Of a stretch of DNA of 64,000 nucleotides, positions 23,048-63,981 are shown one piece after another; positions within the stretch are counted from its first letter, which is position 1, and each line of letters opens with the position of its first letter. The DNA is taken from assembly GCA_965230895.1 (NCBI GenBank), contig OZ246394.1, forward strand, positions 916,668 through 980,667, in the 5' to 3' direction. Origin of the DNA: an uncultured Gammaproteobacteria bacterium. Its GTDB lineage: Bacteria; Patescibacteriota; Microgenomatia; Levybacterales; UBA12049. Position numbers and translations under genes: made by a program. The notes beneath the pieces were generated by a model that saw nothing but the letters and a program-made list of their open reading frames with translations, was not told the origin of the DNA and searched no databases.

Positions 23048-24025
<978 letters not shown>

Positions 24026-24030
24026 CTATT

Positions 24031-26279: not shown

Positions 26280-26281
26280 AA

Positions 26282-27145: not shown

Positions 27146-27669
27146 AGTTTTCCTTCTTCCCGCATCTTCTTAAATAATAGCAGAGCGGCTATGTGTGATG
27201 CAGCACGAACTTTCCCTTCCTCAACTTTTTTAATAACTTCATCAAGAGGCATTTTAACAATTGTGATATCTTCATCCTCTTCAAGCGCAGTTTCACCTTC
27301 AGTCAAATCGGTCGCTGCATAAACATGAACTTTGGCGCGCATATTAATATTAAGATCCCAAAGACCTAATGTATGCCACGTCTTTGCTGTGAGACCTGCT
27401 TCTTCTTTTAGCTCTTTCTTTGCTGTTTCTAAAGGTTCTTCGCCTTCTTCAACGTGTCCAGCAACAATCTCTAACGATCTTTCCCCCAGCGCATCACGAA
27501 ATTGAGATTCCATATAAATTTCATTATCCGCTGTGTACGGGATAATTATTGTTACAGCATTACGTTCAATAAAATCCTTTGTAAACGTTCTGCCATCTCG
27601 CTCGATCTGTTCCTGCTGAATTCTAAAGTATTTTGAAGAATAAACTGTTTTGCTTGAAAGTACTTTCAT
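27142..27669 (-). CDS. NUDIX hydrolase (GDP-mannose mannosyl hydrolase / nucleotide-sugar pyrophosphatase-like)
   Basis: NUDIX box GHVEEGEEPLETAKKELKEEAGL. Embedded between rmlD and rmlB. Confidence 0.6.
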   Translation of the reverse strand: MKVLSSKTVYSSKYFRIQQEQIERDGRTFTKDFIERNAVTIIIPYTADNEIYMESQFRDALGERSLEIVAGHVEEGEEPLETAKKELKEEAGLTAKTWHTLGLWDLNINMRAKVHVYAATDLTEGETALEEDEDITIVKMPLDEVIKKVEEGKVRAASHIAALLLFKKMREEGKL

Positions 27670-28679: not shown

Positions 28680-28689
28680 ATGAGACAGA

Positions 28690-29430
28690 TTATTTAAGTT
28701 CGCCGGATTTTACTTTTTCCTGAACCAAAACATTTGCGCGGATGAGCTCATCATAGGAGGTCCCAGCATCAATCCACCAATCAATTAATTCAAATGACAT
28801 TGTACCTTCTTTAACATAAAAATTGTTAAGATCGGTAACTTCAAGTTCCCCTCGAGCTGATGGAGATAATCCTTTAATAAAATCAAAAACTCGACTATCA
28901 TACATATAAATGCCTGTCTGGGCATAATCTGACTTAGGAAATTCAGGTTTTTCTTCAATAGAAAGTACTTTACCGCTTTCATCAGTTTCAATTACACCGT
29001 ATTGCTTCGATTCTGTTGGCATACTAATGCCAAATATTTTTGCACCTTTTTCTTTTGCTTCCATCTCTTCAACTGATTTTTTGAGATTGTGTCCAAAGAT
29101 ATTGTCTCCGAGAAGTACGGTGATTTTTTCTCCACGAGCGAATTCATCCGCAAGCATCATTGCATCAGCGATACCACCTTTTGGATTCTTTTGCACTGCA
29201 TAATAAAGTTTCAGTCCAAACTCTTCACCCGCACCGAGAAGACTTGCGAAATGCCCTGCGTGATCTGCTGAAGATGTAAGAAGAACTTCCTTAATGCCTG
29301 CTTTTGCCATTGCCTCAAGCGGATAGTAAATCATCGGCTTGTTGTAGATAGGAAGGAGATGCTTATTGGTTACGTATGTAAGTGGACGGAGTCTTGTTGC
29401 CAAACCTCCAGCTAAAATAACACCTTTCAT
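28690..29430 (-). CDS. rmlA: Glucose-1-phosphate thymidylyltransferase-like sugar nucleotidyltransferase (short RmlA form)
   Basis: MKGVILAGGLATRLRPLT...KPM signature of NTP_transferase. Confidence 0.7.
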   Translation of the reverse strand: MKGVILAGGLATRLRPLTYVTNKHLLPIYNKPMIYYPLEAMAKAGIKEVLLTSSADHAGHFASLLGAGEEFGLKLYYAVQKNPKGGIADAMMLADEFARGEKITVLLGDNIFGHNLKKSVEEMEAKEKGAKIFGISMPTESKQYGVIETDESGKVLSIEEKPEFPKSDYAQTGIYMYDSRVFDFIKGLSPSARGELEVTDLNNFYVKEGTMSFELIDWWIDAGTSYDELIRANVLVQEKVKSGELK

Positions 29431-29477
29431 AGATTACTTGTCATTATACTACAAGAGTTTCACTTTCTCAAAGTGAA

Positions 29478-30413
29478 TTAATTTTGCACTTTTAATCGTG
29501 ATAACGCTCTTTTTTGCATAAGATCAATTCCTTTAAAAATTCCCCACTGTACTAAAGCAGGATATTTATCATGATAATTCTTTTTATAAAAAATTCTCAT
29601 TGCATCAAACCGCCAACCCTGTGCTCGCCTTTTTCCTTCAACATTTGCGGTTGTGACATTTTGTGAGGCTGCTTTTATGCCACTTGATGCTCCACCGATA
29701 TGCATGATTTGCACTTCTCCAACATAATAAATGTTATATCCAAGCTTTTGAATGTCATAACAGAATTGTAAATCTTCACCATAGAAGAAGTAATCATCAT
29801 CCCACCAGCCGACTTTCTCTCCTACTTCTCGACGAACCATCATAAAGGCACCCTCCAAAGCATCAATTTTATGTGTTGTATTTAGATCCTTCCATCCTTG
29901 CGTGTATCCAGCAAATAACCGGCTTTTAGGAAATTTCCGTTGCAAGCCTGAAAAAAAAGTGAATGCATTCCAAGGAGTCGGGAAACCTCTATGACAATTA
30001 AAATCCATATCGCCATGCTTATTCATTAATTTACAAGTCGCTGCGCCAGCGTCAGGATGAGAATCCATAAATTGCAACAAATACGTTAAAGTTTTAGGGT
30101 AAACGATTGTGTCCGGATTAAGAAAGAGAATGTATCTTCCTTTTGCATAAGGTAACCCTTTATTATTACCGGCAGCAAATCCTATATTACCGCCATTATC
30201 AACAGGATGAAATGATTTTATTTTTGTATGTTTTCTATATTCCTTAAAAGCCTGGAAGGATCCATCAGGAGATTGATTATCTGTTACGATTACTTCAAAA
30301 TTTCCTGATGAAACATCTTTGGGGTAATTTTTCTCAATTGATTTAATTGCGTCAAGAGTTATGTCTTTTGTGTTGTACGAAAGAATTATTATGGATAAAT
30401 CAACTTGAGCCAT
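29478..30413 (-). CDS. Glycosyltransferase family 2
   Basis: IIILSYNTKD...VIVTDNQSPD GT-A/DxD pattern. Confidence 0.7.
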   Translation of the reverse strand: MAQVDLSIIILSYNTKDITLDAIKSIEKNYPKDVSSGNFEVIVTDNQSPDGSFQAFKEYRKHTKIKSFHPVDNGGNIGFAAGNNKGLPYAKGRYILFLNPDTIVYPKTLTYLLQFMDSHPDAGAATCKLMNKHGDMDFNCHRGFPTPWNAFTFFSGLQRKFPKSRLFAGYTQGWKDLNTTHKIDALEGAFMMVRREVGEKVGWWDDDYFFYGEDLQFCYDIQKLGYNIYYVGEVQIMHIGGASSGIKAASQNVTTANVEGKRRAQGWRFDAMRIFYKKNYHDKYPALVQWGIFKGIDLMQKRALSRLKVQN

Positions 30414-30481
30414 ATCAAGATCATTATATACAGATTAGTCTTAAATGAACAGCTTCAGGGTAATTAGTATATAATAGACAT

Positions 30482-31411
30482 ATGAAACATGTTGCAGTTG
30501 TAACAGTTAATTTTAATACTGAACAGGACACTATTGATTTCCTCCACAGCCTTGAAAAGGTAAACAAGCCAAATATCCGATTAGACACCATTATTGTTGA
30601 TAATGGTTCGAAGGAAGTTTTTGAGCTTCCCCATAATATAAAGAAAGAACACATAAAATTGATCCGCTCTGATAGGAATACAGGCTTTTCAGGAGGATAT
30701 AATATTGGCATGAAAGAAGCATTAGCTAACGGTGCAGAATATATATTGATTGTGAATAATGATACATTGATGGATCCAGATATGATTGTTTATCTTCTTT
30801 CAGTTCTTGATAGTGATGCAAAAATTGGTGTAACAACTCCAAAGATATATTTTGCAAAAGGACACGAATTCCATAAAAATAGATACAAAAAAGAAGACCT
30901 TGGGAAAGTTTTCTGGTTTGCTGGAGGACATACAGATTGGGCAAATGTCCAAAGCATCCATCGCGGTGTTGATGAAGTTGATCATGGTCAATATGATAAA
31001 ACCGAAGAAATTGAATTCGCAACCGGTTGCTGCATGATGTTTAAGAGAGAAGTCTTGGAAAAAGTTGGCATGCTTGATGATGACTTTTTCTTATATTATG
31101 AAGATGCTGATTTGAATGAGCGAGTGCGGAGAGCTGGATACAAAATATTTTATGTTCCAGATGCAGTCCTAACACATGTCAACGCAGCATCTTCTGGTGG
31201 AGCTGGAAATGGCAATGTATTACAAGATTATTTTATAACCCGGAATAAAATGTTATTTGGAATGAAGTATGCACCATTTCGTACAAAGATTGCACTAATA
31301 CGGGAAAGTTTGCGGCTTTTAAGAACCGGCAGAGAATTTCAGAAATATGCAATTAAAGACTACTATCAAGGAAAGTTTAATAAAGGTACGTTCTTCGAAA
31401 AGCGGAAATAA
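30482..31411 (+). CDS. Glycosyltransferase family 2
   Basis: VAVVTVNFNT...IIVDNGS...IVNNDT pattern. Confidence 0.75.
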   Translation: MKHVAVVTVNFNTEQDTIDFLHSLEKVNKPNIRLDTIIVDNGSKEVFELPHNIKKEHIKLIRSDRNTGFSGGYNIGMKEALANGAEYILIVNNDTLMDPDMIVYLLSVLDSDAKIGVTTPKIYFAKGHEFHKNRYKKEDLGKVFWFAGGHTDWANVQSIHRGVDEVDHGQYDKTEEIEFATGCCMMFKREVLEKVGMLDDDFFLYYEDADLNERVRRAGYKIFYVPDAVLTHVNAASSGGAGNGNVLQDYFITRNKMLFGMKYAPFRTKIALIRESLRLLRTGREFQKYAIKDYYQGKFNKGTFFEKRK

Positions 31412-31412
31412 T

Positions 31413-32294
31413 CTAAAGTACTTCTAATGCTTTTGTATAGGTTTCAACCAAGTATGGCTTCTTTGTTACTTTTCCGAGAGCAATCAACGATTTTGCCTTT
31501 GTCACCATCATTGATTTCACAATTAAATACTCTGCAGGAGAACGATGCTTTTTATAAAAATACAACAAATTTTTATAAATATTTACGATCGCAAATGTTT
31601 TATTAGTACTTCCATGTTCTTTGTGTAACACCATAACGTTAGGATAGAAATAAACATCTTTCCTTGCCAAATGTGCACGATAGCATAATTCCATATCTTC
31701 AATATACATAAATATTTTCTCATCAAAACCACCGAGTGCATCAAACTCTGATTTTTTCGCCATCAGAAGACCACCCTTTACCCAATCAACTTTTTGAATC
31801 TTATTAGGGCTTTTGTCGAGCAACCCATACCTTTGTCCACCTGCAAGAAGCAATGCAGCATATTCAAGAGTGTAAAACTTTCCTGTTGAAGCTTGCAGTG
31901 AACCATCAAAGTTACGAAGCTGTCCGCCCATTATTGCAATATTTCCATGCTCGTCCATATATTTTGCCATTGCAAAAATACCATGATCTTTTACGATAGT
32001 GTCATTATTGAGAAAAAGAAGATATTTTCCTTTTGCTGATGCTGCTCCTAAATTGCATCCTGATCCAAATCCACTATTCTTTGGATTAGCGATAAGATGC
32101 ATATTTTTATACTCTTTACTTTTTATTTCTTTACGAATAGTCTGAACAGAATCATCTTGTGAATCATTATCAACGATAATTAATTCAATCTCGCCTTTTT
32201 CAAATTCATGTCTAAACACTTCGTACAATGATTGCATGCAATCAAGTGTCAATTCTTTTCTTTTATAATTAAGTGTAACTATCGAAAGTGTCAT
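31413..32294 (-). CDS. Glycosyltransferase family 2
   Basis: LSIVTLNYKR...IIVDNDSQD pattern. Confidence 0.75.
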   Translation of the reverse strand: MTLSIVTLNYKRKELTLDCMQSLYEVFRHEFEKGEIELIIVDNDSQDDSVQTIRKEIKSKEYKNMHLIANPKNSGFGSGCNLGAASAKGKYLLFLNNDTIVKDHGIFAMAKYMDEHGNIAIMGGQLRNFDGSLQASTGKFYTLEYAALLLAGGQRYGLLDKSPNKIQKVDWVKGGLLMAKKSEFDALGGFDEKIFMYIEDMELCYRAHLARKDVYFYPNVMVLHKEHGSTNKTFAIVNIYKNLLYFYKKHRSPAEYLIVKSMMVTKAKSLIALGKVTKKPYLVETYTKALEVL

Positions 32295-33244
32295 ACTTTA
32301 TTTTCCTTCAAAATAGATCTATCTGTTCGTACAAAAAGTTTCTTTGCTCGATATCTGGAATCTTTGACTCGATCCATTTGAGCAAGGGCAAGAAAGAATC
32401 CCTGAATAAAAACTAGATCACGACGCAAAACTGCCTTGAGCAAATGATACGGCATCCAGAGAATATGCGATAAAAGTAATCCTCGATCAGTAATGTTTTT
32501 CCAGATGAAAAAGTATTGATTTCTATAGGCAATCTTCTGGATATGCTTTGGTTTGAATTTCGTTTTGATAGCACCTTCTTCATGTTCATGCACAACAATA
32601 CTACGCGGTTCAAAAACAATTTTATAACCTGACTTCCAGGCTCTATACGAAAGATCTATATCTTCCCAATAAAACGGATTAAATAAATTATCTAACCCAC
32701 CTAATTTATCCCAAATCTTTTTATTAAATGCACTACTTCCTCCACTTGCCCAAAGAGATTGACCAGCCGAAACATCTGCAGCTTTATGTTGGAGAAACCC
32801 ACGCTGCCACCAACCAATTGCTCTACCTCGAGGGACACTTTTTCCTTCTTCTATACTTTCATCCAAACACCCGACTGCAAATACTTTATCATCAGAAAAA
32901 TGCGCAAGCAGTGGAGCAAGGAATTCTTTATAAGGTCGAACATCTGAATTGAAGAGAATAAGAATATCTCCACTTGCCAATTGGACACCACGATTTACAT
33001 TTTTTGAGAAACCAGCTTCTTCTCTTTTGAGATTATTAATCGTTTTACCAACAATATGCTTTTCTTTAATTGACTTGATAAAAGCTTCAATGACTTCTGT
33101 TGATTTATCTGTCGAAGGATCATTGGGGATAATAATTTCAACCTTACCTTCTTTATAATCTTTTACTGATTCAAGGACATGAGGAAGGTTTTTCTTTAGA
33201 ATTTTCTCTCCGTTGTAGTTAGGGATAACAATGCTTATATTCAT
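32291..33244 (-). CDS. Glycosyltransferase family 2
   Basis: ISIVIPNYNG...LFNSDV pattern. Internal Met start chosen at MNISIV (33244); the track ORF extends to 33301. Confidence 0.7.
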   Translation of the reverse strand: MNISIVIPNYNGEKILKKNLPHVLESVKDYKEGKVEIIIPNDPSTDKSTEVIEAFIKSIKEKHIVGKTINNLKREEAGFSKNVNRGVQLASGDILILFNSDVRPYKEFLAPLLAHFSDDKVFAVGCLDESIEEGKSVPRGRAIGWWQRGFLQHKAADVSAGQSLWASGGSSAFNKKIWDKLGGLDNLFNPFYWEDIDLSYRAWKSGYKIVFEPRSIVVHEHEEGAIKTKFKPKHIQKIAYRNQYFFIWKNITDRGLLLSHILWMPYHLLKAVLRRDLVFIQGFFLALAQMDRVKDSRYRAKKLFVRTDRSILKENKV

Positions 33245-33254
33245 AGAACCTCGT

Positions 33255-33515
33255 CTATACACTAAATAGGTACAGGGAGAGTACCACACCCAGGCAGGCA
33301 ATCAAAATATACTCAATAACTAATCGGACATGCAATTCGTGATGGACATAATGGTGAAGTAATGACCATATGAAATAACATGTTGCCGTCATAGTAATAA
33401 TTAATGCTTGTAACTTACTACTCTGGCTATTAAGTGTAATTAATGCCAATCCTAATCCAAAGATCAACAGTGTTGAACTGTAATACCAAATATGTTTGCG
33501 TATATCCTGAATCAT
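33255..33515 (-). CDS. Small two-TM membrane protein
   Basis: 86-aa hydrophobic ORF with a 1-nt overlap to the upstream CAP-domain gene. Confidence 0.3.
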   Translation of the reverse strand: MIQDIRKHIWYYSSTLLIFGLGLALITLNSQSSKLQALIITMTATCYFIWSLLHHYVHHELHVRLVIEYILIACLGVVLSLYLFSV

Positions 33516-40911: not shown

Positions 40912-41745
40912 TTGAATAATACGCACAAAGTTAAAATCATGGGAATTCTCAATGTAACTCCCAACTCATTTTCCGATGGAGGTCTTTATACAAATGTTCA
41001 TGCAGCTTTAAAAAGAACAGAAGTAATGCTTTATGAAGGTGCAGATATTATTGATATCGGGGGCGAATCAACAAGGCCAGGCTCAGAAACAGTAACTGAA
41101 ACAGAAGAACTGAAACGAGTTCTTCCTGTAATTAAAGCTATAAGAAAAGCATTTCCAAAGTGCATCTTATCAATTGATACAAACAAAGCGATAGTCGCAA
41201 AGGCAGCAATTGATGAAGGGTGCACAATAGTAAATAGTCTTGGAGGATTTAGTTTTGATAAAGAAATGGCACATATTGTGGCTGACTCTGGTTCACAATG
41301 CATTATCTACCATATAAAAGGTATCCCAAAGACAATGCAGAAAGGGGCAATAGCATATACAAATATCATCCAAGAGATTACACAGTTCTTTAGAGAACAG
41401 ATCGGAATTGGTATAGACGCAGGAATGAAACACGAGCAATTTATCATTGATCCCGGCATCGGATTTGGAAAAACAGTCGAACAGAATCTAGCAATAATTA
41501 GACACCTTCATGCGTTTGCATCACTTGATTGCCCAATCGCAATTGGTGTTTCAAGGAAGAGCCATTTAGGAGCAGTATTGAAAGAGCAGCTCAAGCTTGA
41601 TACACTTCCAACCGTTGATGAACGACTCGAAGCATCTTTAGCAGAGACAGCGGTTGCTATAATTAGTGGGGCAACGATAGTTAGAACCCATGATGTCCTA
41701 CAGACAAAGAAGTTTATAAGTGTTTTAGAATCAATAATTTCATGA
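40912..41745 (+). CDS. folP: Dihydropteroate synthase
   Basis: GILNVTPNSFSDGG, IIDIGGESTRPG, and a pterin-binding TIM-barrel pattern. Confidence 0.85.
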   Translation: MNNTHKVKIMGILNVTPNSFSDGGLYTNVHAALKRTEVMLYEGADIIDIGGESTRPGSETVTETEELKRVLPVIKAIRKAFPKCILSIDTNKAIVAKAAIDEGCTIVNSLGGFSFDKEMAHIVADSGSQCIIYHIKGIPKTMQKGAIAYTNIIQEITQFFREQIGIGIDAGMKHEQFIIDPGIGFGKTVEQNLAIIRHLHAFASLDCPIAIGVSRKSHLGAVLKEQLKLDTLPTVDERLEASLAETAVAIISGATIVRTHDVLQTKKFISVLESIIS

Positions 41746-42488
41746 ATATCCAACCATATAAAACAAACAAAATAGTTGCAGGAAATGATCTATACCAAGT
41801 CCTTGATGCTTCCTTGCCGAAACTTACTGAGAAGTCTGTCGTTGCAGTTACTTCGAAAATCGTTGGTATATGCGAAGGACGATTAGTTAAAGCGGGGACA
41901 CTTGAAGACAAATTCAAGCTTGCTGAAACTGAAGCAGATTATTATTTACCTCCAGGAGAGAACCAATATGGCATTATGCTTTCTATCAACCATAACCTTT
42001 TAGTCGCATCCGCTGGCATCGATGCTTCAAATAGCGATGGATATTTCAGCCTTTGGCCAAAAGACCCACAAAAAAGTGTTAATCAGATCAGAGAATATCT
42101 AACAAAAAAACATCAACTCAAACATGTCGGGGTTATTCTAACAGACAGTAAGCTCAGTCCGCTTCGCTGGGGAGTCACAGGATATGCTATTACACACAGT
42201 GGGTTCAAGGCTTTAAACAGCTATATTGGGACAGAGGATTTATTTGGACGAGAAATGCATATGGAACAGACAAATGTCATTGATTCACTCGCTTCAGCAT
42301 CTGTCGTTGTTATGGGAGAGGGCTCCGAGCAAACTCCACTTGCTGTAATCACTGATGTCCCTTTCATAGAGTTTCAAGATAGAAATCCGACCGAGAAAGA
42401 ACTCGATGCACTCAAAATAAATATTAAGGATGACGTCTATGCTTCAATGCTTTCGGCAGTTCCATGGAGGTCGAAAAGAAGAAAGTGA
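41742..42488 (+). CDS. CofE-family gamma-glutamyl ligase (F420-0:gamma-glutamyl ligase fold); candidate alternative folylpolyglutamate synthase (FolC2-like)
   Basis: VVAVTSKIVGICEGR, SAGIDASN, GVILTDSKLSPLRWGVTGYAITHSG, DLFGREM and VMGEGSEQTPLAVI match CofE block-for-block. Its start overlaps the folP stop by 4 nt. Confidence 0.7.
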   Translation: MNIQPYKTNKIVAGNDLYQVLDASLPKLTEKSVVAVTSKIVGICEGRLVKAGTLEDKFKLAETEADYYLPPGENQYGIMLSINHNLLVASAGIDASNSDGYFSLWPKDPQKSVNQIREYLTKKHQLKHVGVILTDSKLSPLRWGVTGYAITHSGFKALNSYIGTEDLFGREMHMEQTNVIDSLASASVVVMGEGSEQTPLAVITDVPFIEFQDRNPTEKELDALKINIKDDVYASMLSAVPWRSKRRK

Positions 42489-46810: not shown

Positions 46811-48961
46811 TTACAATGATGATGAAAGCTCACGGAGAAAAAGATTATAGTCGCCACTTTCGACTTTTCCATTATCATCAAGGTCTGTATTTATCGCAGG
46901 AACATGCACTTGGCAAACAGGTTTATTGAAAGGTGCATTCGGGTCACTAATAGGGAGCGGATTAATTACTCCATATCCACAATCAAGAAAAGCATTGTAA
47001 TCCATAACATTGATCAAGTTATCCCCTGTCACATCTCCTGCATTAAGCGAAATTTGAGAGAGAGCATTTTCTTCGTTAGAAACTAAGGAAATAACTACAT
47101 TCTTTTGTAAATACCTATCACTTTTAATGCGCATGCTATATGTCCCTGAAGAGAAATTACTTCCCAAATCGACTTTGCCTATAAAGTTTCCAGAAGCAAC
47201 ATCATAAGTGATGGTAGCTGATTTGCTAGCAACATTATTATTGGTACTATCAAAAAGACTTACTGATACATTCCGTTGCGGAGTTTGCGGAGATTTATTG
47301 CTTAAGCTTCCTCCTCCAGGATTTGAATTATCTCCTGATGAACCAATTCCATGAAGAGCAATTGTAAATGAAAGTATTGTAGAAGATCCCCCAAGATTTG
47401 GCGTTGTTGGAGTAATTGTTGAAGCACCTGTCGGTTGTGGTGTAAAAAATGGTGTTGGCGGAGTTGACCCAAAATTGATAGCTACTGTCGCTTGTGTTGC
47501 TATCGCTGTCTTTGTTTGCACTGAAATCTTGTTGTCCCCATCGAAAAATACCATGCCCGGCTCAAGTGCCGAATCCGCAAATGTTGTAGTTGCTGGGTTT
47601 GCATCGAGGAGGACAACATCACAGCTGTCTCCACTAGGACATTCTACTGGCGCAAGACGGATACTAACACCCTTAAAAATATTGGATGCAGGACGCTCCT
47701 GAAGAGGTAGATAGTCAAAAAAATTAATGAATTGATCGACACCATATGGTTGACGATATTCCAGATAATAATACTGCTTCTGGCCAGAAGCTGTCGTTGT
47801 GTTTCTTGGGATTTTAATAAGCTGAACCGATGAGGATGTCTGTTCTTGTGGAACAATCGTATATGTACCTGCAGATGTCACTTCCTGAATATTTCCTGAC
47901 GCATACCATCCTGCTGATTCTTTATGTACATTACTGATATGCCCCAAACCGCCACCTAGTGGCTCATACGGATCTCCCGCATCATCTATGCAGTTATTAC
48001 TGATCGTAACTCTTTTGCCAGAACTATCCGTGCAGGAAAAAGCATAAGCATGCCGGAGATAACCATCTGTCGTTTGTCCAGACCCATAGGGCAAAGTATG
48101 AGCAATTTCATGGAGAAAAACATGCTTGTACGAAGACACCGGATATGTAGGATCTGAGATAATAATATAGCTATTGTTCGCACTTGATAACCCGACAAAT
48201 CCCTTACATCCATTCGTCACAGGGAATACAAAAATGAATTTATCATATCCTGTCATATCTTTTCCTGCTTTTTGCGCTTCTTGTTTAGCGAGCTCTCCCC
48301 AATTCAGAATTTGTTCGTTTGCACATTCGGATTTAGGAGTACCAACAACAAGATCATAAGGAACGGTATACCACCCAAATACATCCCCATCAGGACTAGT
48401 TTTGCCTTGCAAATTGTATAAACCATAAGAAGCCTCTTTAAAATAGTTTTTAATGGAATCTGTGTCAGTAAAAATTGTCTTTTTTGTAGCATCTTGTGTA
48501 AATGGTTGCCTTGTATTATTTCTGAAGTTAAACAAGATCACAGCAGTTCTAATATTTTTAACTGTTGCGGCAGCTGTGACTTGAGATCGAGGTTCATCAA
48601 GGATTTGGACCGCGTTGAGGTCTTTGGCATCAACTGTTAATATATCCTTTTCGATTACGCCAGTGAGTTTCACGTGTGTATCTGGTGCAAATTGTAAAGG
48701 TTTTCCATTTGAAAAGCGTACTTGGAATGTTTTTTTATCCAGAGTTCTTAGTGAATACTCCATCGTTGATTTTCCGGATTCTTGGTCGAGAATAAAGATC
48801 GTAATGGTTCCCTCAATCGTTCTTGTTTCTGACTGCATAGATGCACGAGAACGGATGTCATTTCTTTCTGTTTGGAAAATGGTTATCGGTAAGATGACTA
48901 AGCCAATAAGTAAAATGCTCAGGACTACAAAAACTGGAGTATTACGGAATTTTCGCCCCAT
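46811..48961 (-). CDS. Membrane-anchored secreted Zn-metalloprotease-like protein (HExxH) with a Thr/Pro linker and a C-terminal dockerin-like Ca-binding repeat pair
   Basis: N-terminal TM. VFLHEIAHTL zincin motif. C-terminus GDVTGDNLINVMDYNAFLD...DLDDNGKVESGDYNLFLREL (two dockerin-type-I-like loops). Confidence 0.5.
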   Translation of the reverse strand: MGRKFRNTPVFVVLSILLIGLVILPITIFQTERNDIRSRASMQSETRTIEGTITIFILDQESGKSTMEYSLRTLDKKTFQVRFSNGKPLQFAPDTHVKLTGVIEKDILTVDAKDLNAVQILDEPRSQVTAAATVKNIRTAVILFNFRNNTRQPFTQDATKKTIFTDTDSIKNYFKEASYGLYNLQGKTSPDGDVFGWYTVPYDLVVGTPKSECANEQILNWGELAKQEAQKAGKDMTGYDKFIFVFPVTNGCKGFVGLSSANNSYIIISDPTYPVSSYKHVFLHEIAHTLPYGSGQTTDGYLRHAYAFSCTDSSGKRVTISNNCIDDAGDPYEPLGGGLGHISNVHKESAGWYASGNIQEVTSAGTYTIVPQEQTSSSVQLIKIPRNTTTASGQKQYYYLEYRQPYGVDQFINFFDYLPLQERPASNIFKGVSIRLAPVECPSGDSCDVVLLDANPATTTFADSALEPGMVFFDGDNKISVQTKTAIATQATVAINFGSTPPTPFFTPQPTGASTITPTTPNLGGSSTILSFTIALHGIGSSGDNSNPGGGSLSNKSPQTPQRNVSVSLFDSTNNNVASKSATITYDVASGNFIGKVDLGSNFSSGTYSMRIKSDRYLQKNVVISLVSNEENALSQISLNAGDVTGDNLINVMDYNAFLDCGYGVINPLPISDPNAPFNKPVCQVHVPAINTDLDDNGKVESGDYNLFLRELSSSL

Positions 48962-57772: not shown

Positions 57773-58339
57773 TTAAAGCGGCTTCTTCTTGAGTTTTAGT
57801 ACATAGCCTAAATATGTTCCTGCTGGATGAATAATAATCCACATAAAAAGAATTAAAATGTACTGATACCATTCCAATGGAACATAAAACCATGTAAATA
57901 AAATTCCACCAAGAATAAAATCTATTTGATCGAATGGGACCCAACTTCTTCCAGGTTGAATATTTTGTCGTCGTTTAAAGAAACTCTTCACTGCATCTCC
58001 CGCTAATGCACCAAAACCTAGCAAAAATCCTAAAAGAATTGGATCTACTTCATTATAATTTATAGGAAGTATACTTCTCTGCCACTCTATATTGTTATAG
58101 AAAAAGATCTGTAGATAAACTCCTATGATTGCAACGAGTGTTCCAAATATAAAACCGCGAATTGTCTTATGACTTCCAAGAATCCTTTTCCCCTGGAACT
58201 TTAAGCCAAAATCTACAGGATAATTATATGGTTTCAAAAAGAAAATTTTCCCAGAACCAAATGCCACGACGTTTGCGAGTCCTGCGGGTCCAAAAAACCA
58301 AAATGCAAAGAAGATTTCTTTAAGAAGATGCTCAACCAT
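57773..58339 (-). CDS. CTP-transferase-like membrane protein resembling CDP-archaeol synthase (CarS/DUF46), distantly related to CdsA
   Basis: Five-TM 188-aa protein with PAGLANVVAFGSGKIF and DFGLKFQGKRILGSHKTIRGFIFG, which I recall as DUF46/CarS signatures. Assignment is from memory of the motif, not a search. Confidence 0.4.
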   Translation of the reverse strand: MVEHLLKEIFFAFWFFGPAGLANVVAFGSGKIFFLKPYNYPVDFGLKFQGKRILGSHKTIRGFIFGTLVAIIGVYLQIFFYNNIEWQRSILPINYNEVDPILLGFLLGFGALAGDAVKSFFKRRQNIQPGRSWVPFDQIDFILGGILFTWFYVPLEWYQYILILFMWIIIHPAGTYLGYVLKLKKKPL

Positions 58340-59000
58340 TTGTTAATATTATCTTATTTTTAATACGATTTACCAATGGGCAAAGTAATGTATAAATTGG
58401 CGCTCTTTTCCGAGACAATTCTGGATTTACCAAGAGATGTTTGAGAGATCTTCGTGTAGGCATTTCTGAAACCATACTAAATGTTTTTCCCATCCCCATA
58501 ATGCAATGAGAATCACTACTTGCTGCTTGTGATTTTTGATAGAGATTTGCGAATGCGAGAGCCTCCATAGGTTTTCCGCGGACTTGCCCACGGCCATTAA
58601 AGACTTCAACAATATCAATATCATCTTTAATTTTATCCAAACTTGATTGCTGTAATCCTTTTCTGAAAATCTCGTATGGATGAGGTATATAAACAAGCGC
58701 ATCCTGTTGTTTTATTCGATTAACTGTTTCGACAGCATCAAGTCCAGCAGGAATTGTTTCTTTGAGGAAAAGCCCGATGATCTCACCTTCACTTGTTGTT
58801 ATTTCCTCACCAATGATAATTTTATCCCCATGTTTTTGCTGCATTATCCTCGCAAAACTCGTTTCGTTATGGTCTGTGATCGCAATACAATCAAGCCGTT
58901 CTGTCTCCAGTAAGCGCTCATATTCCTCAGCCGTAATACCACCATCATGTGATATGATTGAATGTGAATGCAGGTCAACTTTATAATGCGTTTTATCCAT
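58332..59000 (-). CDS. PHP-domain phosphoesterase (histidinol-phosphatase-like metal-dependent phosphatase)
   Basis: DLHSHSIISHDGG, ITDHNE, HPYE, SDSH: the four PHP metal-ligand blocks. Start chosen at MDKTHYKVDLHSHS (59000); the track ORF extends to 59132. Confidence 0.7.
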   Translation of the reverse strand: MDKTHYKVDLHSHSIISHDGGITAEEYERLLETERLDCIAITDHNETSFARIMQQKHGDKIIIGEEITTSEGEIIGLFLKETIPAGLDAVETVNRIKQQDALVYIPHPYEIFRKGLQQSSLDKIKDDIDIVEVFNGRGQVRGKPMEALAFANLYQKSQAASSDSHCIMGMGKTFSMVSEMPTRRSLKHLLVNPELSRKRAPIYTLLCPLVNRIKNKIILTNG

Positions 59001-59586
59001 GTTAAGTAAAAGCAAACAATCAGTAGAGAAAGTTTTGGAGCCAATAGTCAAACCTTTGTCTAAGGTAAATCCGAACGTGCTGACTCTCTTAGGTAGTATA
59101 CCACCTCTTCTTTTCTTTGTCGCTATCATCAATCACATCTATTGGCTAGCAATTCTTGCTTTTATAGGCAATCTTTTTGATCTTATCGACGGGATGGTAG
59201 CAAGGAAATATAAAAAAGTAACAGCTTTTGGAGGATTTCTTGATTCAACACTTGATCGGGTCGGAGATTTCTTAATAATTACTTCATTCTCTTTTGCAGG
59301 AATTGTCCGATGGGAGTTAACAATACCATTATTACTTTTTGCCTTCTTGACTAGTTATATCCGAAGCCGAGGAGAGTTGGCAAAACCGTCAGTAAGTTTT
59401 GCAGTTGGAATTGTTGAAAGAACAGAGCGGCTCATTGTTGTGGTCCTTGCTCTCGTTTTGCACATGTTTTTTCCAAACTATTCTTTCGCAGGATTTAATG
59501 TGATGGAGGTCAGTTTCTTATTCTTAGGAATTTTATCTTTCTATACAGTTTTACAACGCGTTGCCCATGCGCATAAAAATCTTTAA
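58999..59586 (+). CDS. Small CDP-alcohol phosphatidyltransferase (PIP/AIP-synthase or DIPPS-size class)
   Basis: DLIDGMVARK...GGFLDSTLDRVGD = D-G-x2-A-R-x8-G-x3-D-x3-D. 195 aa, about 6 TM. Confidence 0.75.
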   Translation: MLSKSKQSVEKVLEPIVKPLSKVNPNVLTLLGSIPPLLFFVAIINHIYWLAILAFIGNLFDLIDGMVARKYKKVTAFGGFLDSTLDRVGDFLIITSFSFAGIVRWELTIPLLLFAFLTSYIRSRGELAKPSVSFAVGIVERTERLIVVVLALVLHMFFPNYSFAGFNVMEVSFLFLGILSFYTVLQRVAHAHKNL

Positions 59587-59619
59587 TAAATCGTTCCTTC
59601 ACGCCTATTGAAGTCCTGA

Positions 59620-60714
59620 TTAATCTATTTTGTATTTCCGGATAAACTCTTCTACTTTTTCTCGAGCAACTGTGTCAGTGTATTGTTTTGGAGGAGATTT
59701 CATAAAGTATGAAGATGGTTCGACCAATGGACCACCTACATTATTATCCAACGCTAATTTACAGCAACGGATTGCATCAATCACGACACCTGCCGAGTTG
59801 GGGGAATCTTCAACCGACAGGCGCGCTTCAATATGCATTGGGACATCACCAAAGTGACGACTTTCAATTCGAATAAATGCCACTTTATTATCTTTCATCC
59901 ACTCGACATAATCACTTGGACCAATATGAACATTCTCTGGCTTAATTGAGTCATCATGAAGATCAATCTGTGAAGTTACAGATTGTGTCTTTGAAATTTC
60001 TTTTGACTTTAAACGTTTTCTTTCAAGCATATTCTGAAAATCAGTATTACCTCCTACATTTAATTGGTAGGTTCTATCAATTGGCATACCACGATCTAAG
60101 AAAAGATTTGTGAGAACTCGATGAACGATCGTTGCACCAACTTGTGCTTTAATATCGTCGCCAACGATAGGGACATTGGCATCTATAAAACGTTTACTCC
60201 ATTTTTTATCTGTAGCGATAAACACTGGCATGCAATTTACCATACCCACTTTCGCTCGCAAACAAATATCTGCCCAATATTCAACTGCTTTTTGGCTTCC
60301 AACTGGAAGATAGTTAACAAGTATTTCTGCTCCAGAATCTTTGAGAGCTTTTACTGGGTCAGGTATTTTACTTTTTGAAACTTTAATAACATCCTTTACA
60401 TATTCACCGATACCGTCTATCACTTCTGCATTCTTTACTGTAACACCTAACTTTGGAACTTTTGCAAATACTGCAGTGTTGTTTGGATGCGCATAAATTG
60501 CTTCTCCCAAATCTTTACCAACTTTTGTCTCGTTGACATCAAATGCTGCTACAACTTCAATATCACTTATTTTATATCCACCGAAATTTGCATGCATCAG
60601 ACCGAAGATTCTATCATTCTCTTTTGCATTCTTATAGTAGGTTAGACCTTGGACAAGTGATGAGGCACAATTACCAATACCGACAATTGCTATTTTTATT
60701 TTTTTGTTCTTCAT
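59620..60714 (-). CDS. ino1: myo-Inositol-1-phosphate synthase (Ino1 type, NAD-dependent)
   Basis: IAIVGIGNCASSLVQGLTYYKNA, GLMHANFGGY, AAFDVNETKVGKDL, NVGGNTDFQNMLERKRL, SPNSAGVVIDAIR: near-collinear with mycobacterial and archaeal MIPS as I recall them. Confidence 0.85.
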   Translation of the reverse strand: MKNKKIKIAIVGIGNCASSLVQGLTYYKNAKENDRIFGLMHANFGGYKISDIEVVAAFDVNETKVGKDLGEAIYAHPNNTAVFAKVPKLGVTVKNAEVIDGIGEYVKDVIKVSKSKIPDPVKALKDSGAEILVNYLPVGSQKAVEYWADICLRAKVGMVNCMPVFIATDKKWSKRFIDANVPIVGDDIKAQVGATIVHRVLTNLFLDRGMPIDRTYQLNVGGNTDFQNMLERKRLKSKEISKTQSVTSQIDLHDDSIKPENVHIGPSDYVEWMKDNKVAFIRIESRHFGDVPMHIEARLSVEDSPNSAGVVIDAIRCCKLALDNNVGGPLVEPSSYFMKSPPKQYTDTVAREKVEEFIRKYKID

Positions 60715-60781
60715 AAGAATTAACGATAACAGAACAATAACCTATTGTAAAATTAATGTATCTTATGATACATTAATAAAA

Positions 60782-61633
60782 TTAATGTTTGAAGAACTAC
60801 AAAGATTTCTGCTTCTTGTAGAAGAAAGAAATGCAACAAAAGTCGCGGACAAAGTATTTATCACCCAATCTGCGATGTCTCAGTCCATTAAGAGACTCGA
60901 AAAAGAGTTAGGTGTTGTATTAGTCATACAGAAAGGTAAGCAGCTAGAGATTACGAGTGATGGTTTAGCGGTTGCGGAAATTGGAACAAAGATTCTACAG
61001 CTTTGGCAAAAAGCGAAAGACCCTCAGAAGCGTTTTTCGGAGAAGCAAACTATTTCTCTAGGAAGTTTTGATAACGCAGCATTAAAGTTAGGTAAATATT
61101 TTCAAGACTCGATCATAAAAGATACTTTTAAAATTGAACTTACAATTAATGCTTCTGGAAAAATATTTTCACAAATCACACTTGGTATTTATGATATAGC
61201 GCTTTGTGTTGTTGATAAGAGAAAGCATTTACCAAAAAGCTTAATCGAAGTTATGACTTTTAAAGAAGAGCTTATTCCTGTTTCTTCACGAAAATTTGAT
61301 GGAAGGAAAGAATCAATTCCATTTATTTTATATAACGTAGGATCAAATACTCGTGATCAGATCGATTCTATTTTCGCGGAAAACTTTTTTAAGCCAACAA
61401 TCTTTGCGGAATCGACTAGTACAACATTTATGAAAGAGCTTGCACTCCTCGGCAGTGGAATAGCCTTATTACCAAAGAATTCTGTCTTAACTGAAATTTC
61501 TCAAGGGTTACTGAAGAAACATGCTCTGCCCTTCAAGTTTCACCGAGAATATGGTCTATATCTTTCAAAACAAAGTACCGTTACAAAAGATCATCAAATT
61601 ATTAAAGATATTTGTAGAATTTTGAGGAAATAA
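60782..61633 (+). CDS. LysR-family transcriptional regulator
   Basis: N-terminal HTH LQRFLLLVEERNATKVADKVFITQSAMSQSIKRLEKELG, then a substrate-binding domain. Start chosen at MFEEL; the track ORF extends upstream to 60704. Confidence 0.75.
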   Translation, partial: LMFEELQRFLLLVEERNATKVADKVFITQSAMSQSIKRLEKELGVVLVIQKGKQLEITSDGLAVAEIGTKILQLWQKAKDPQKRFSEKQTISLGSFDNAALKLGKYFQDSIIKDTFKIELTINASGKIFSQITLGIYDIALCVVDKRKHLPKSLIEVMTFKEELIPVSSRKFDGRKESIPFILYNVGSNTRDQIDSIFAENFFKPTIFAESTSTTFMKELALLGSGIALLPKNSVLTEISQGLLKKHALPFKFHREYGLYLSKQSTVTKDHQIIKDICRILRK

Positions 61634-62413
61634 TTATTTTTTAGACAATCCCTTCATTGCCTCGAGGACTTCAATAGGTACTGCAAAGACAACAGTATTT
61701 GATTGGTCCGAAGATATATCATTAATTGAATTTAAAGTACGTAGATGTAACGCTCCTGGTGAAGTTGCCATCAATTTTGCTGCTTTTGAGAGGTTTTCTG
61801 CGGCAACAACTTCTCCTTCTGAATTAATAATAGTTGCACGTCTTTCTCTTTCAGCTTCGGCTTGCTTCGCCATTGTTCGCTTCATACTCTCAGGAAGGAC
61901 AATATCTTTAAGCTCTACTGTGAGCACTTCAATTCCCCATCCACCAGTTGTTTCTTTCACAATATCTTTGATACGAGTAGCAACTTTGTCTCTATTTGCC
62001 AAAAGTGAGTCAAGGTCCACTTCTCCAACAATATTTCTCATCGTTGTTTGTGCAAGCTGATGAACTGCAACGTAAAAATTTTCCACTTCCAAGACCGCTT
62101 TTGAAGCATCGGTCACTTTATAATAAATAACAGCGGAGATACTTGCTGATATATTATCTTTTGTAATAGCATCTTGATTTGGAACATCAACAGCCTTGGT
62201 ACGAATATCCACCTTTTGATATGACTGAAAAATCGGGATAACAAGTCGCCAACCTGGTTCCATAACTCCTGAGTATTTACCTAAAGTAAATTTTACTCCA
62301 CGTTGATATTGGTTGATTTGCTTAATCGAGATAAGCAGAATAACTAAAATTGGAAAAAGAAAAACAAGAATATCCATTTGGATTATTGTATACCTGAAGG
62401 TTTTGTAATGCAA
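61634..62413 (-). CDS. SPFH/band-7 (stomatin/HflK-C-like) membrane protein
   Basis: N-terminal TM, QYQRGVKFTLGKY...PGWRLVIPIF SPFH-core pattern, and a C-terminal coiled coil AKQAEAERERRA. Confidence 0.75.
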   Translation of the reverse strand: MHYKTFRYTIIQMDILVFLFPILVILLISIKQINQYQRGVKFTLGKYSGVMEPGWRLVIPIFQSYQKVDIRTKAVDVPNQDAITKDNISASISAVIYYKVTDASKAVLEVENFYVAVHQLAQTTMRNIVGEVDLDSLLANRDKVATRIKDIVKETTGGWGIEVLTVELKDIVLPESMKRTMAKQAEAERERRATIINSEGEVVAAENLSKAAKLMATSPGALHLRTLNSINDISSDQSNTVVFAVPIEVLEAMKGLSKK

Positions 62414-62421
62414 GAATTATT

Positions 62422-63147
62422 TTATTTTGCGAACATTTCTTGAGCTTTTGCGTAATCTTCATGTGTGTCTATCTCAACCCATTTAAGTCCTGTTATATCA
62501 ACTGCATACATTGGACAACCTTTCGCAACTAAGGTTGTGTAACTATCATCATAATACTCTTGCCAATTAGCCTGATCGTTCATTAATGCTTCAAGTTCTG
62601 CAAACAATACTTTCGCAGCATCTGCACTAATCTTTTCTATCCCAATTGATTCACCAGTTGATGCATGTGGATCAAGTTTTTTGCCAACTTGTAATACCTT
62701 GTTATTTTCGTCTGTTATAACTTTTACTTCCTCTGCTTCTAAATTAATATTTTTGTCGATACAGAGTGCACTTGGAACTGGTGCATCTATCAACTTTTTT
62801 AAAACTTCTGTTTCGAAAACAACATCAGCATCAAATTTAATAAAACTATCATCTCCTACAAATTCTTTTGTGAGGAGCAATGAATAACCGGTATTTGTCG
62901 CTTCAAATTTCTCATTATGCATGAATGTTACTTTGAGTTGAGGGAACTTTTCAGCAATGAATGCTTCTACTTGTTCTGCTCGATAACCTGTAACAATTCC
63001 AACTTCAGTCATTCCAACTTCTACCACTGCATTAAGCATGCGCTCAATAATGGAAATTCCTACGACGGGAATAAATGATTTTGGTTTATCATCGGTAAGT
63101 GGTCTAATTCTTGATCCCACTCCAGCTGCTAATAATATTGCTTTCAT
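62422..63147 (-). CDS. Sugar/alcohol-phosphate nucleotidyltransferase (NTP_transferase fold; IPCT- or LicC-like cytidylyltransferase candidate)
   Basis: MKAILLAAGVGSRIRPLTDDKPK signature. 241 aa. It is co-transcribed downstream of a CDP-alcohol phosphatidyltransferase. Confidence 0.6.
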   Translation of the reverse strand: MKAILLAAGVGSRIRPLTDDKPKSFIPVVGISIIERMLNAVVEVGMTEVGIVTGYRAEQVEAFIAEKFPQLKVTFMHNEKFEATNTGYSLLLTKEFVGDDSFIKFDADVVFETEVLKKLIDAPVPSALCIDKNINLEAEEVKVITDENNKVLQVGKKLDPHASTGESIGIEKISADAAKVLFAELEALMNDQANWQEYYDDSYTTLVAKGCPMYAVDITGLKWVEIDTHEDYAKAQEMFAK

Positions 63148-63162
63148 AATACGTATTATACC

Positions 63163-63981
63163 TTATTTTCTCATTGGCATGAGTAATTCTTTAGATCTAT
63201 TCTTTAACTGAGTTCCACGTTCAAATACTCTCCATAATGCCCATATGGTTTGGCTTATTGCCAAAATCCAAAGTACAAGATCGAGACGGTTGCATAATGC
63301 TCCAATCGCAACAAATATTGCAAATTCTGCTTCATCGACAATAAGTAATGTTCTATTCTTTATCCATGAGAATCTCAATGCTTCACTTATATTTTTTGCT
63401 TTTTTTGCATATTGTACCTCCATTGCATGTTCGAGCTTTTGTCTTACCTTTGCAGATTCATCAAAATATTTTGGATTATTTGAAAACGCACTAAACATAG
63501 ATTCCAATTTAATATAATAGCGATATTGGAACATGAAACATGAGATAAAACCAAGAAGCAAATAAGTAATATTATTTGTTTGGAGATAGACCGCAAGACC
63601 TGTAAAAAACGTAATAAGGAAAATCTTTAAGATATCCAAAACTTTGTCCATATAATCTCCCATGATTGAATACTTCTTTGTGATTCGAGCCAATTGTCCA
63701 TCGACATCATCACCGACATATCCGAAGAAAATCATCAAACTACCAAGTACTAAATGGTATGGGAAATTTAAAACGAGGAAAATACATCCTAATGCAAATA
63801 ACGCGAAAGAAACAAGCGTAACATGATTTGGCGTTAAGAATGAGATTTTTGAAAGAGGTTTAACAATAATCCTTGCTAAAGGATATCCAATACGATCTCC
63901 CCAATTACTGTAGTATGTTGATTTTATGACACGGATTGCTGCGGTTGATTTTACAGTTTTAGTCGCTGAAGCTTTCTTCAT
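63163..63981 (-). CDS. CDP-alcohol phosphatidyltransferase-family membrane protein (second copy, 272 aa)
   Basis: GYVGDDVDGQLARITKKYSIMGDYMDKVLDILK = D-x2-D-G-x2-A-R...G-x3-D-x3-D. An AGGAGG SD is visible on the minus strand at 63987-63995. Confidence 0.75.
   Translation of the reverse strand: MKKASATKTVKSTAAIRVIKSTYYSNWGDRIGYPLARIIVKPLSKISFLTPNHVTLVSFALFALGCIFLVLNFPYHLVLGSLMIFFGYVGDDVDGQLARITKKYSIMGDYMDKVLDILKIFLITFFTGLAVYLQTNNITYLLLGFISCFMFQYRYYIKLESMFSAFSNNPKYFDESAKVRQKLEHAMEVQYAKKAKNISEALRFSWIKNRTLLIVDEAEFAIFVAIGALCNRLDLVLWILAISQTIWALWRVFERGTQLKNRSKELLMPMRK

Follow-up and report, generated by a model that had tools for sequence, protein, structure and literature searches.

A predicted phosphatidylinositol pathway and a separate, probable head-group cassette side by side in a Levybacteria-like Patescibacterium

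Gene content of the region

The subject of this work is a gene cluster at positions 57773-63981 of a 64-kb stretch of DNA (contig OZ246394.1, assembly GCA_965230895.1), in the following called the window. The cluster comprises eight genes (Table 1). Six of them had been named in a preliminary description, which regarded the cluster as a self-contained module for inositol phospholipids or inositol phosphodiesters. These six open reading frames (ORFs) are all present at the predicted coordinates and on the predicted strands, and the guesses as to their families were borne out by hidden Markov models from Pfam and NCBIfam, by structure comparisons and by residue checks. The clustering is real, too, but the number of genes had been given as seven: The genes for a LysR-type regulator and an SPFH/Band-7 protein were left undescribed, and an aminotransferase gene beyond the end of the window was missed.

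The region is composed of two separate units. Unit A (57773-60714 and the LysR gene) encodes a CarS-like CTP-transferase, a PHP-family phosphoesterase, a 195-aa CDP-alcohol phosphatidyltransferase and a myo-inositol-1-phosphate synthase (MIPS). Unit B (62422-63981) encodes a nucleotidyltransferase and a 272-aa CDP-alcohol phosphotransferase and continues into the aminotransferase gene past the window end. The base composition does not break at the region. Named homologues of its proteins come from Candidatus Levybacteria/Levyibacteriota and other Patescibacteria, and the host is a Levybacteria-like Patescibacterium of the candidate phyla radiation (CPR).

Table 1. Genes in the region 57773-63981 of the window with the matches that define their families
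Gene product	Position	Strand	Length	Evidence
CarS-family CTP-transferase (unit A)	57773..58339	-	188 aa	PF01864 98.8 bits
PHP-family metal phosphoesterase (unit A)	58332..59000	-	222 aa	PHP 25.4 bits, fold model, metal ligands
PIP/AIP-synthase-type CDP-alcohol phosphatidyltransferase (unit A)	58999..59586	+	195 aa	CDP-OH_P_transf 63.5 bits; NF040950
Myo-inositol-1-phosphate synthase, MIPS (unit A)	59620..60714	-	364 aa	Inos-1-P_synth PF01658 122 bits
LysR-type regulator (unit A)	60785..61633	+	282 aa from second ATG	HTH_1 + LysR_substrate
SPFH/Band-7 membrane protein	61634..62377	-		PF01145 145 bits
LicC/PntC-like nucleotidyl(cytidylyl)transferase (unit B)	62422..63147	-	241 aa	NTP_transferase PF00483
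CDP-alcohol phosphotransferase, AF2299/DIPPS-like fold (unit B)	63163..63981	-	272 aa	PF01066 43.5 bits
PIP, phosphatidylinositol phosphate; AIP, archaetidylinositol phosphate.

The 195-aa transferase and MIPS

The best NCBIfam model for the 195-aa transferase is archaetidylinositol-phosphate synthase (AIPS, NF040950; 153.5 bits, cut-off 180), which it matches from end to end over all of its 195 aa. The model for synthases of phosphatidylinositol phosphate (PIP), PIPSynth NF045883, follows with 107.4 bits (cut-off 170). Only 34 and 23 bits are obtained with pgsA and pssA, respectively. This means, the protein does not group with PgsA or PssA, an outcome that had been named beforehand as speaking against an inositol-phosphate transferase. 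Both equivalog scores lie under their cut-offs, which, judged by sequence, places the enzyme in a divergent clade. Its best matches in the PDB are the PIP synthases 5D91, 6H53 and 6WM5 from Renibacterium, Mycobacterium tuberculosis and M. kansasii.

The catalytic signature D1xxD2G1xxAR...G2xxxD3xxxD4 is complete (D61, D64, G65, A68, R69, G78, D82 and D86). The protein was aligned with M. tuberculosis PgsA1, for which the roles of individual residues have been described (PMC6506517). All eight positions of the PgsA1 inositol-phosphate pocket are matched: R87 corresponds to R94, the basic residue after D4, S119 to S132, Y120 to Y133, R122 to K135, R124 to R137, R141 to R152, R144 to R155 and R187 to R195, with Lys replaced by Arg in the case of K135. 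The equivalents of R94, R155 and R195 are retained in 34 of 36 relatives encoded divergently from PHP and in 19 of 20 co-oriented ones (see below). The MIPS protein is covered in full length by TIGR03450 with 485 bits, which does not reach the actinobacterial equivalog cut-off of 638. From these sequence features, MIPS and the 195-aa transferase can very probably be expected to synthesize PIP. Of the two chemistries considered in the preliminary description, the first one, in which a CDP-lipid and inositol-1-phosphate yield PIP and then phosphatidylinositol (PI), is thus supported for the left half of the region by family scores, by the solved PIP synthases and by the PgsA1 residues. The adjacency of MIPS, the conserved synteny and the fusions between CarS and CDP-alcohol transferase domains reported below lend it further support.

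The start codons of the transferase and PHP genes overlap on opposite strands within a CATG (58998-59001; read directly from the sequence). Both genes are miscalled in public annotation, which can be attributed to these back-to-back overlapping starts. The public 130-aa transferase was rejected because it lacks D1xxD2G, the first half of the catalytic motif, and the public 265-aa PHP protein (58332-59132) because more than 1000 homologues are only 217-224 aa long. A good, merely plausible -35/-10 site is located 12 nt upstream of the transferase ATG within the PHP gene. Across the window, a scan for promoters and terminators did not differ much from shuffled sequences (31 promoter-like sites versus 26.6 expected).

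Conservation of the unit A core across Patescibacteria

A scan for CarS-like genes in one genome per GTDB species yielded 365 loci, 80 of which were fetched with flanks of +/-10 kb. They were compared by tblastn of the window proteins and by de novo clustering of all neighboring ORFs. Synteny was counted in the 65 loci that contain at least 2.6 kb upstream of CarS. A CDP-alcohol transferase of ~200 aa is encoded in 54 of these 65 loci, PHP in 48 and both in 46. The clustering of transferase, PHP and CarS is far beyond chance. PHP and CarS are co-oriented in every PHP-containing locus, and in 30 of the 34 loci without an inserted kinase gene the PHP stop codon overlaps or abuts the CarS start codon. 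In the window, this overlap amounts to 8 nt. A gene for a DAGK_cat/YegS_C lipid kinase, whose family was confirmed, is found between PHP and CarS in 17 of the 65 loci (21 of all 80); the order in locus L087, for instance, is transferase, PHP, DAGK_cat/YegS_C, CarS.

Two layouts can be distinguished. In the first one, that of the window, the transferase is divergent from PHP and shares 36-90% identity with the window protein. In the second one, found mostly in metagenome-assembled genomes (MAGs) labeled Saccharibacteria, transferase, PHP and CarS are encoded on one strand. Here, the transferase is 24-31% identical to the window protein and still scores best on AIP- and PIP-synthase models (85-107 bits). 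The gene for MIPS adjoins the core in 12 of 80 loci (9 of the 65 informative ones), usually together with a LysR gene. The latter is divergent from MIPS, adjacent to it in 10 loci and called with 282 aa in public annotation; it probably controls MIPS. An SPFH/Band-7 gene lies beside LysR in L007, L009 and L013 (247-248 aa in public calls and in L013). No published description of the transferase/PHP/(lipid kinase)/CarS operon across Patescibacteria was found.

Two side observations were made in these loci. First, a protein of ~317 aa without a Pfam or NCBIfam match is encoded in the kinase slot between PHP and CarS in eight loci (L043:9040-10002, L024:9067-10011, L041:5420-6382 and five more). 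Its motifs VVKEGRWD, QEFVEG, PDTRPRY and FIDTRWFW look protein-kinase-like by eye, and it may be a non-homologous replacement kinase. Second, several MAG records with a Patescibacteria-type cassette are titled 'uncultured Gammaproteobacteria' (L013, L017, L018, L027, L028, L050 and L058); these labels look wrong.

The CarS-like CTP-transferase and its lipid substrate

In the 188-aa protein, the CarS-like domain PF01864 covers residues 7-185 and, hence, its full length. The CarS branch scores 98.8 bits compared to 26.6 bits for the CdsA branch, so by sequence the protein clearly belongs to the CarS and not the CdsA branch of CTP-transferases. The NCBIfam model NF003114 (CarS) yields 130.1 bits, below its equivalog cut-off of 148. 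The sole PDB relative detected by a family profile is Aeropyrum CarS (5GUF, E 1e-10), with the cores GD..SF.KR and DQ.D aligned. When public proteins are reduced to representatives at 50% identity, 1608 of them fall into the CarS-like family (E <= 1e-3). Patescibacteria account for almost all of the 80 fetched loci; two are labeled Woesearchaeota. A CarS-like enzyme outside archaea is, therefore, less exceptional than had been assumed at the outset: The family is widespread in Patescibacteria, and its CPR members already carry the name 'CDP-archaeol synthase' in public annotation. In the literature, CarS or CdsA of CPR/Patescibacteria were encountered in passing mentions only, and no published description of a CarS-for-CdsA substitution as a pattern was found.

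Four natural fusion proteins contain CarS. Three of them combine it with CDP-OH_P_transf (P0407, P0414, P0489) in both domain orders, and one with PAP2 (P0495). Synteny, translational coupling within the operon and these fusions make it probable that the CarS-like enzyme supplies the CDP-lipid to the 195-aa transferase. As for the lipid itself, purified archaeal CarS favors digeranylgeranylglyceryl phosphate (DGGGP) over phosphatidic acid and fails to complement Escherichia coli cdsA (PMC9385802).

It follows that unit A could also be of the archaeal type. The CarS-like enzyme would then make CDP-archaeol from an ether isoprenoid lipid, either acquired from an archaeal host or self-made, the transferase would be a true AIPS and the product an archaeal-type inositol lipid. 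Apart from the substrate discrimination of archaeal CarS (PMC9385802), this is supported by the best NCBIfam models for both membrane enzymes, which are archaeal (CarS 130 bits; AIPS 153.5 compared to 107 for PIPSynth), by Aeropyrum CarS as the only solved relative, and by the CarS proteins of DPANN archaea, which are 42-50% identical to the window protein. However, both scores are under the equivalog cut-offs, and neither the window nor the flanks of the 80 loci contain genes for GGGPS, DGGGPS, glycerol-1-phosphate (G1P) dehydrogenase or isoprenoid synthesis. Moreover, the inserted DAGK_cat/YegS kinase is of bacterial type, and the cassette is common in Saccharibacteria, whose hosts, as far as known, are Actinobacteria with PI lipids of the ester type. 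Last but not least, Starr et al. predicted PI, and perhaps phosphatidylinositol mannosides (PIMs), to be made from scavenged diacyl phosphatidate in a soil Saccharibacterium (PMC6031116). An archaeal-type product is, accordingly, considered unlikely, and a substrate of the ester type is fairly likely. Diacyl phosphatidic acid is more likely the substrate than archaetidic acid, because a bacterial-type lipid kinase is present in a quarter of the loci, ether-lipid genes were not found in the window or the flanks and Saccharibacteria are abundant among the carriers.

The PHP phosphoesterase

The match of the 222-aa protein to Pfam PHP is weak (gathering score 26.4); the CehA/McbA model is matched with 2.8e-14. 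There are more than 1000 homologues of ~217-224 aa. The residues H11, H13, D19, D43, H44, E65, E66, H107, E110, D163 and H165 are invariant in the family, and the PHP metal ligands (HxH/D/H/E/H/DxH) are intact. With an AlphaFold model of high confidence (predicted local distance difference test, pLDDT, 93.7), a Foldseek fold search returned 2ANU, 3E38 and 7UG9 with probability 1.0. A sequence-only search of the PDB gave a weak match to TM0559 alone.

A route through PIP needs one phosphomonoesterase. PHP is the sole candidate in the operon and travels with the PIPS-like transferase, which accompanies it in 46 of 48 PHP-containing loci. For these reasons, PHP was assigned the role of PIP phosphatase, with a 3-phosphatase activity being proposed; the odds for this assignment are about even. 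None of the eight proteins matches PgpA in Pfam or NCBIfam. Characterized stand-alone PHP enzymes are mostly phosphomonoesterases like the histidinol-phosphate, 3'-phosphoadenosine-5'-phosphate (pAp) and tyrosine-phosphate phosphatases. No enzyme is known to have been assigned to the corresponding phosphatase step in archaea. No published description of a PHP protein as candidate PIP phosphatase was found.

Several findings speak against this role, which is suggested by the operon position and the intact active site. The best folds are those of uncharacterized PHP phosphoesterases, TM0559 and BVU_3505, and of RNase AM, so that there is no functional neighbor. PHP is soluble: Membrane segments are lacking, and a hydrophobic-moment test for a membrane anchor revealed no more than moderate amphipathicity of the C-terminal helix (µH ~0.4). 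Furthermore, the tightest link of PHP is that to CarS and not to the transferase, which is often divergent. In locus L053, transferase, CarS and MIPS occur without PHP. In a Woesearchaeota MAG (L080:8057-10522), an operon encodes Psd, a CDP-alcohol transferase of 210 aa, a DUF212/divergent PAP2 protein and CarS. Here, a phosphatase-like gene adjoins CarS although the Psd/Pss-type pathway has no phosphorylated lipid intermediate, which suggests that the phosphatase slot may serve CarS rather than PIP.

Based on the latter points, PHP might assist CarS by hydrolyzing pyrophosphate, by trimming lipid pyrophosphates or by recycling CMP or other nucleotides, whereas PIP would be processed by an unlinked enzyme or remain as it is. 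The stop/start overlap and co-orientation of PHP and CarS, the PAP2-CarS fusion, the Woesearchaeal operon and locus L053 all agree with such a role. Nevertheless, it would leave the presence of a PIPS-like transferase in 46 of 48 PHP loci unaccounted for, the pathway needs exactly one phosphomonoesterase for which no other candidate is present, and the phosphomonoesterase activity of most characterized PHP enzymes is not in its favor, either. An auxiliary function for CarS is, hence, conceivable but not likely.

Unit B, a triad with an aminotransferase

Just past the window end (coordinate 64000), a class-V aminotransferase gene (L004:3106-4308) similar to those for 2-aminoethylphosphonate (AEP) transaminases (AEPTs) follows, which goes with the last two window genes. 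The family of the 272-aa transferase is small (126 matches). Outside of the genome of the window, its complete gene contexts (L007, L087-L090, L092 and L093; an eighth contig, L091, begins ~830 nt upstream of the gene) contain the same triad in seven of seven cases, i.e., a class-V aminotransferase of ~390 aa, the transferase and an NTP-transferase of ~240 aa, often with overlapping stop and start codons. A MIPS gene accompanies the triad only in the genome of the window, at a distance of 1.7 kb, and in L007; five of the seven contexts (L088, L089, L090, L092 and L093) contain none within 8-10 kb. In the closest relative of the window (L013, 87-95% protein identity), an alanine racemase and an unknown 556-aa protein (L013:2939-5714) occupy the slot between RecQ and SPFH, which in the window's genome holds a FemAB-like acetyltransferase and the triad. 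This variable insertion slot beside the inositol genes identifies the triad as an accessory cassette. Unit B is best regarded as an independent mobile cassette of three genes. No published description of this triad was found.

Separately, it was observed that the triad transferase of L007 (2808-3572) is only 45% identical to the window protein 63163-63981, with 73% identity for the flanking aminotransferase and 88% for the nucleotidyltransferase. The middle gene of the triad may, hence, have diverged fast or been replaced between these two Levybacteria.

The best family of the aminotransferase is TIGR03301 (PhnW-AepZ, 2-aminoethylphosphonate aminotransferase; 288 bits over the full length, cut-off 361), and the PDB structure that it matches best is the AEPT domain of 6PD1, the PntC-AEPT fusion protein Tde1415 from Treponema. 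The nucleotidyltransferase scores 58.9 bits with LicC (1JYK), 56.6 bits over the full length with the PntC domain of 6PD1, and 39.9 bits with inositol-1-phosphate cytidylyltransferase (IPCT, 2XME). In the 272-aa transferase, the motif D91xxD94G95xxA98R99..G108xxxD112xxxD116 is intact. Ile follows D116, which is D4, and this column is not conserved as Arg or Lys in 118 family members. In inositol-phosphate users, a basic residue after D4 is conserved (PMC6506517). The family has C-terminal motifs of its own (RYYIKLE, VDEAEF, WR..ERG.Q and PMRK). The model of the 272-aa protein (pLDDT 89.5) is most similar to Archaeoglobus AF2299 (template modeling score ~0.6), and is also close to the bifunctional IPCT-DIPPS (DIPPS, di-myo-inositol-phosphate-phosphate synthase). 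The likeness to these two, the best matches in both sequence and fold, includes a juxtamembrane N-terminal helix; in contrast to AF2299 and IPCT-DIPPS, no cytidylyltransferase domain is fused to the window protein.

Taken together, these data point to a Kennedy/Pnt-type route. Unit B likely makes an amine-type head group and not one based on inositol. The head group may be 2-aminoethylphosphonate, phosphoethanolamine, serinol phosphate or something new. Treponema denticola Tde1415 and Streptococcus pneumoniae LicC (Rice et al., 2019, PMC6697681) resemble the soluble enzymes of unit B including their acidic amine-contact residues. Tde-PntC contacts the amine of AEP via Glu104 and Glu196 (PMC6697681). 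An assignment to AEP is weakened by two findings. One is that the nucleotidyltransferase has Asp at both contact positions, as in LicC, instead of the two Glu of PntC (alignment versus PMC6697681). The other is that genes for phosphoenolpyruvate (PEP) mutase (Ppm) or phosphonopyruvate decarboxylase (Ppd) were found neither in the window nor in the Pfam tables of L004, L087-L090, L092 and L093 (8-10 kb). An AEP head group would, therefore, need a Ppm encoded elsewhere in the genome. A further difference from Tde1415 and LicC lies in the third protein, which in unit B is a membrane CDP-alcohol phosphotransferase and not of the LicD type described in PMC6697681.

Two inositol-based explanations of unit B have to be weighed. 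According to the first one, the second chemistry of the preliminary description, 62422-63147 and 63163-63981 encode IPCT and DIPPS, which form CDP-inositol and, from it, di-myo-inositol phosphate (DIP) or glycerophosphoinositol as a solute. The bifunctional NCBIfam model does match both proteins, though weakly (78 and 38 bits, cut-off 580), the best folds of the 272-aa protein are AF2299 and IPCT-DIPPS, and MIPS is close by. On the other hand, IPCT 2XME is a poorer match to the nucleotidyltransferase than LicC and PntC are, the basic residue after D4 typical of inositol-phosphate users (PMC6506517) is lacking, and the pair is syntenic with an AEPT-like aminotransferase that would be useless for DIP synthesis and lies apart from MIPS in five of seven contexts. 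The IPCT/DIPPS chemistry is not supported for the right half of the region and appears highly improbable. DIP is, in addition, a solute of hyperthermophiles.

The second explanation is the alternative PI route that Heaver et al. suggested for Bacteroides/Prevotella, in which CDP-inositol is transferred onto diacylglycerol (DAG) or ceramide; the window's genome would then have two parallel PI routes. The gene pair is the same as that proposed in PMC9246714, MIPS is close to it in both the window and L007, and the loss of the inositol-phosphate arginine would fit an unphosphorylated lipid acceptor. This is countered by the identity of the third gene, an aminotransferase instead of the HAD hydrolase of the Bacteroides cluster, by the prevalence of triads without MIPS, by the AEP-specific Tde1415 fusion, whose two halves are matched by the two soluble enzymes, and by the acidic residues at the amine-contact positions. 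A second PI route is, hence, improbable.

Proposed pathways and comparison with known systems

On balance, a sequence-based reading is favored in which unit A is a PIP-route PI pathway that operates on salvaged diradylglycerol phosphate, and unit B a separate amine-type head-group cassette. In unit A, MIPS would, by homology, convert glucose-6-phosphate to inositol-1-phosphate. The CarS-family enzyme, as family, synteny and fusions suggest, would use CTP to activate diradylglycerol phosphate to a CDP-lipid. Its substrate would most likely be phosphatidic acid obtained by salvage or by recycling of other lipids and, in many relatives, might be made in situ by the DAGK_cat/YegS lipid kinase. Subsequently, the 195-aa transferase is predicted to form PIP from CDP-lipid and inositol-1-phosphate, for which the catalytic and pocket residues argue strongly. 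Finally, PHP is the candidate for dephosphorylation of PIP to PI in view of its operon position and intact active site. In unit B, the aminotransferase would form a small amino-phosph(on)ate, the LicC/PntC-like cytidylyltransferase would activate it with CTP, and the 272-aa phosphotransferase would move the activated group onto a lipid alcohol such as DAG.

This reading has its weak points. All NCBIfam equivalog scores are under their cut-offs, and given the preference of archaeal CarS for DGGGP, it is an assumption that the CPR enzyme accepts phosphatidic acid. The window contains neither a lipid kinase nor an acyltransferase: Among its ORFs of at least 150 aa, Pfam detected no CdsA, acyltransferases (Pls), DAG kinase, ether-lipid genes, PEP mutase or Ppd. 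This survey included every such ORF except two that overlap larger ones and covers 64 kb of the genome. For want of a source of lipid phosphate in the window, the designation of the cluster as self-contained was too strong.

A closely related PI pathway is that of mycobacteria and other Actinobacteria (Ino1, CdsA, PgsA1). In mycobacteria, the route through PIP is established and the phosphatase has been termed 'yet-unidentified' (PMC6506517). Shared features are the two-step logic via PIP, the PgsA1 signature and pocket, the PIP-synthase structures and a MIPS of the short bacterial/archaeal type. In contrast, the CDP-lipid in the window would come from a CarS-family enzyme instead of CdsA, a PHP gene is part of the operon, genes for PIM mannosyltransferases are not adjacent, and the host, a reduced Patescibacterium, probably obtains its lipid backbone by salvage. 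In Bacteroides thetaiotaomicron, BT_1522-BT_1526 represent a cluster of MIPS, PIP synthase and phosphatase with an established route via PIP-DAG (Heaver et al., 2022, PMC9246714). Its dedicated phosphatase, BT_1525, is PgpA-like, whereas the PHP candidate belongs to a different superfamily. The sphingolipid branch (BT_1522) is not present in unit A, and the 195-aa transferase scores 48 bits on the BT_1523 model with a cut-off of 350. Archaea employ CarS and AIPS (PMC9385802). This pair shares with unit A the best curated models for both membrane enzymes, Aeropyrum CarS as the sole solved relative and the chemistry of activation followed by transfer. It differs from unit A in that the window scores are below the cut-offs, genes for an ether-lipid backbone are absent from window and flanks, the hosts are bacterial and many Patescibacteria relatives have a bacterial DAGK_cat kinase inserted.

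Patescibacteria are regarded as incapable of synthesizing lipids themselves and as dependent on material from their hosts. If the proposed pathway is true, the cassette shows how such cells tailor a scavenged membrane: Lipid phosphate is re-activated and an inositol head group added. A CarS-family enzyme in a bacterial, probably ester-lipid pathway would be a natural test of the archaeal/bacterial 'lipid divide' at the CDP-activation step. The PHP gene provides a concrete candidate for the PIP phosphatase, a step which has been identified only in Bacteroides (PgpA-type), and the triad may stand for a Kennedy-type route to a head group that is new. A more far-reaching view, according to which Patescibacteria as a group use a CarS of archaeal lineage instead of CdsA to activate their salvaged membrane lipid, PHP represents a new class of PIP phosphatases and the triad makes a head group undescribed in bacteria, is rather doubtful as a whole. 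Examples of such a head group, produced by a Kennedy-type route of bacteria, would be an aminoethyl-phosph(on)ate formed independently of Ppm or a serinol-phosphate lipid.

Other genes in the window

The remainder of the window has the typical content of a CPR genome with housekeeping genes, an envelope cluster for sugar nucleotides and glycosyltransferases, GH130 phosphorylases and glycogen genes. Scans for Rfam families and tRNAs gave no matches in the window. Pfam yielded no match at E <= 1e-4 for three large ORFs, 46811-48961 (716 aa), 4467-5909 (480 aa) and 527-1693 (388 aa). The envelope-glycan cluster (20210-33301) encodes a PMT_2-type glycosyltransferase, a GT2 protein with a GtrA domain, three GDP-mannose-dehydratase-like/epimerase proteins, a UDP-glucose dehydrogenase, RmlD, an RmlA-like nucleotidyltransferase, a NUDIX protein and four further GT2 proteins. 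In principle, this cluster could decorate a lipid anchor. At 40912-42488, a gene of the CofE/F420-0:gamma-glutamyl-ligase family directly follows that for dihydropteroate synthase. This hints at a folate-related glutamyl ligase in an organism that is unlikely to make F420. Between 50675 and 57702, two tandem GH130 phosphorylase genes, the second of which encodes 650 aa with two GH130 stretches, are accompanied by genes for a short GlgP-like phosphorylase and a GlgA-type starch/glycogen synthase. GlgA and GlgP are syntenic with the CarS gene in L007, L009, L013, L016 and L025.

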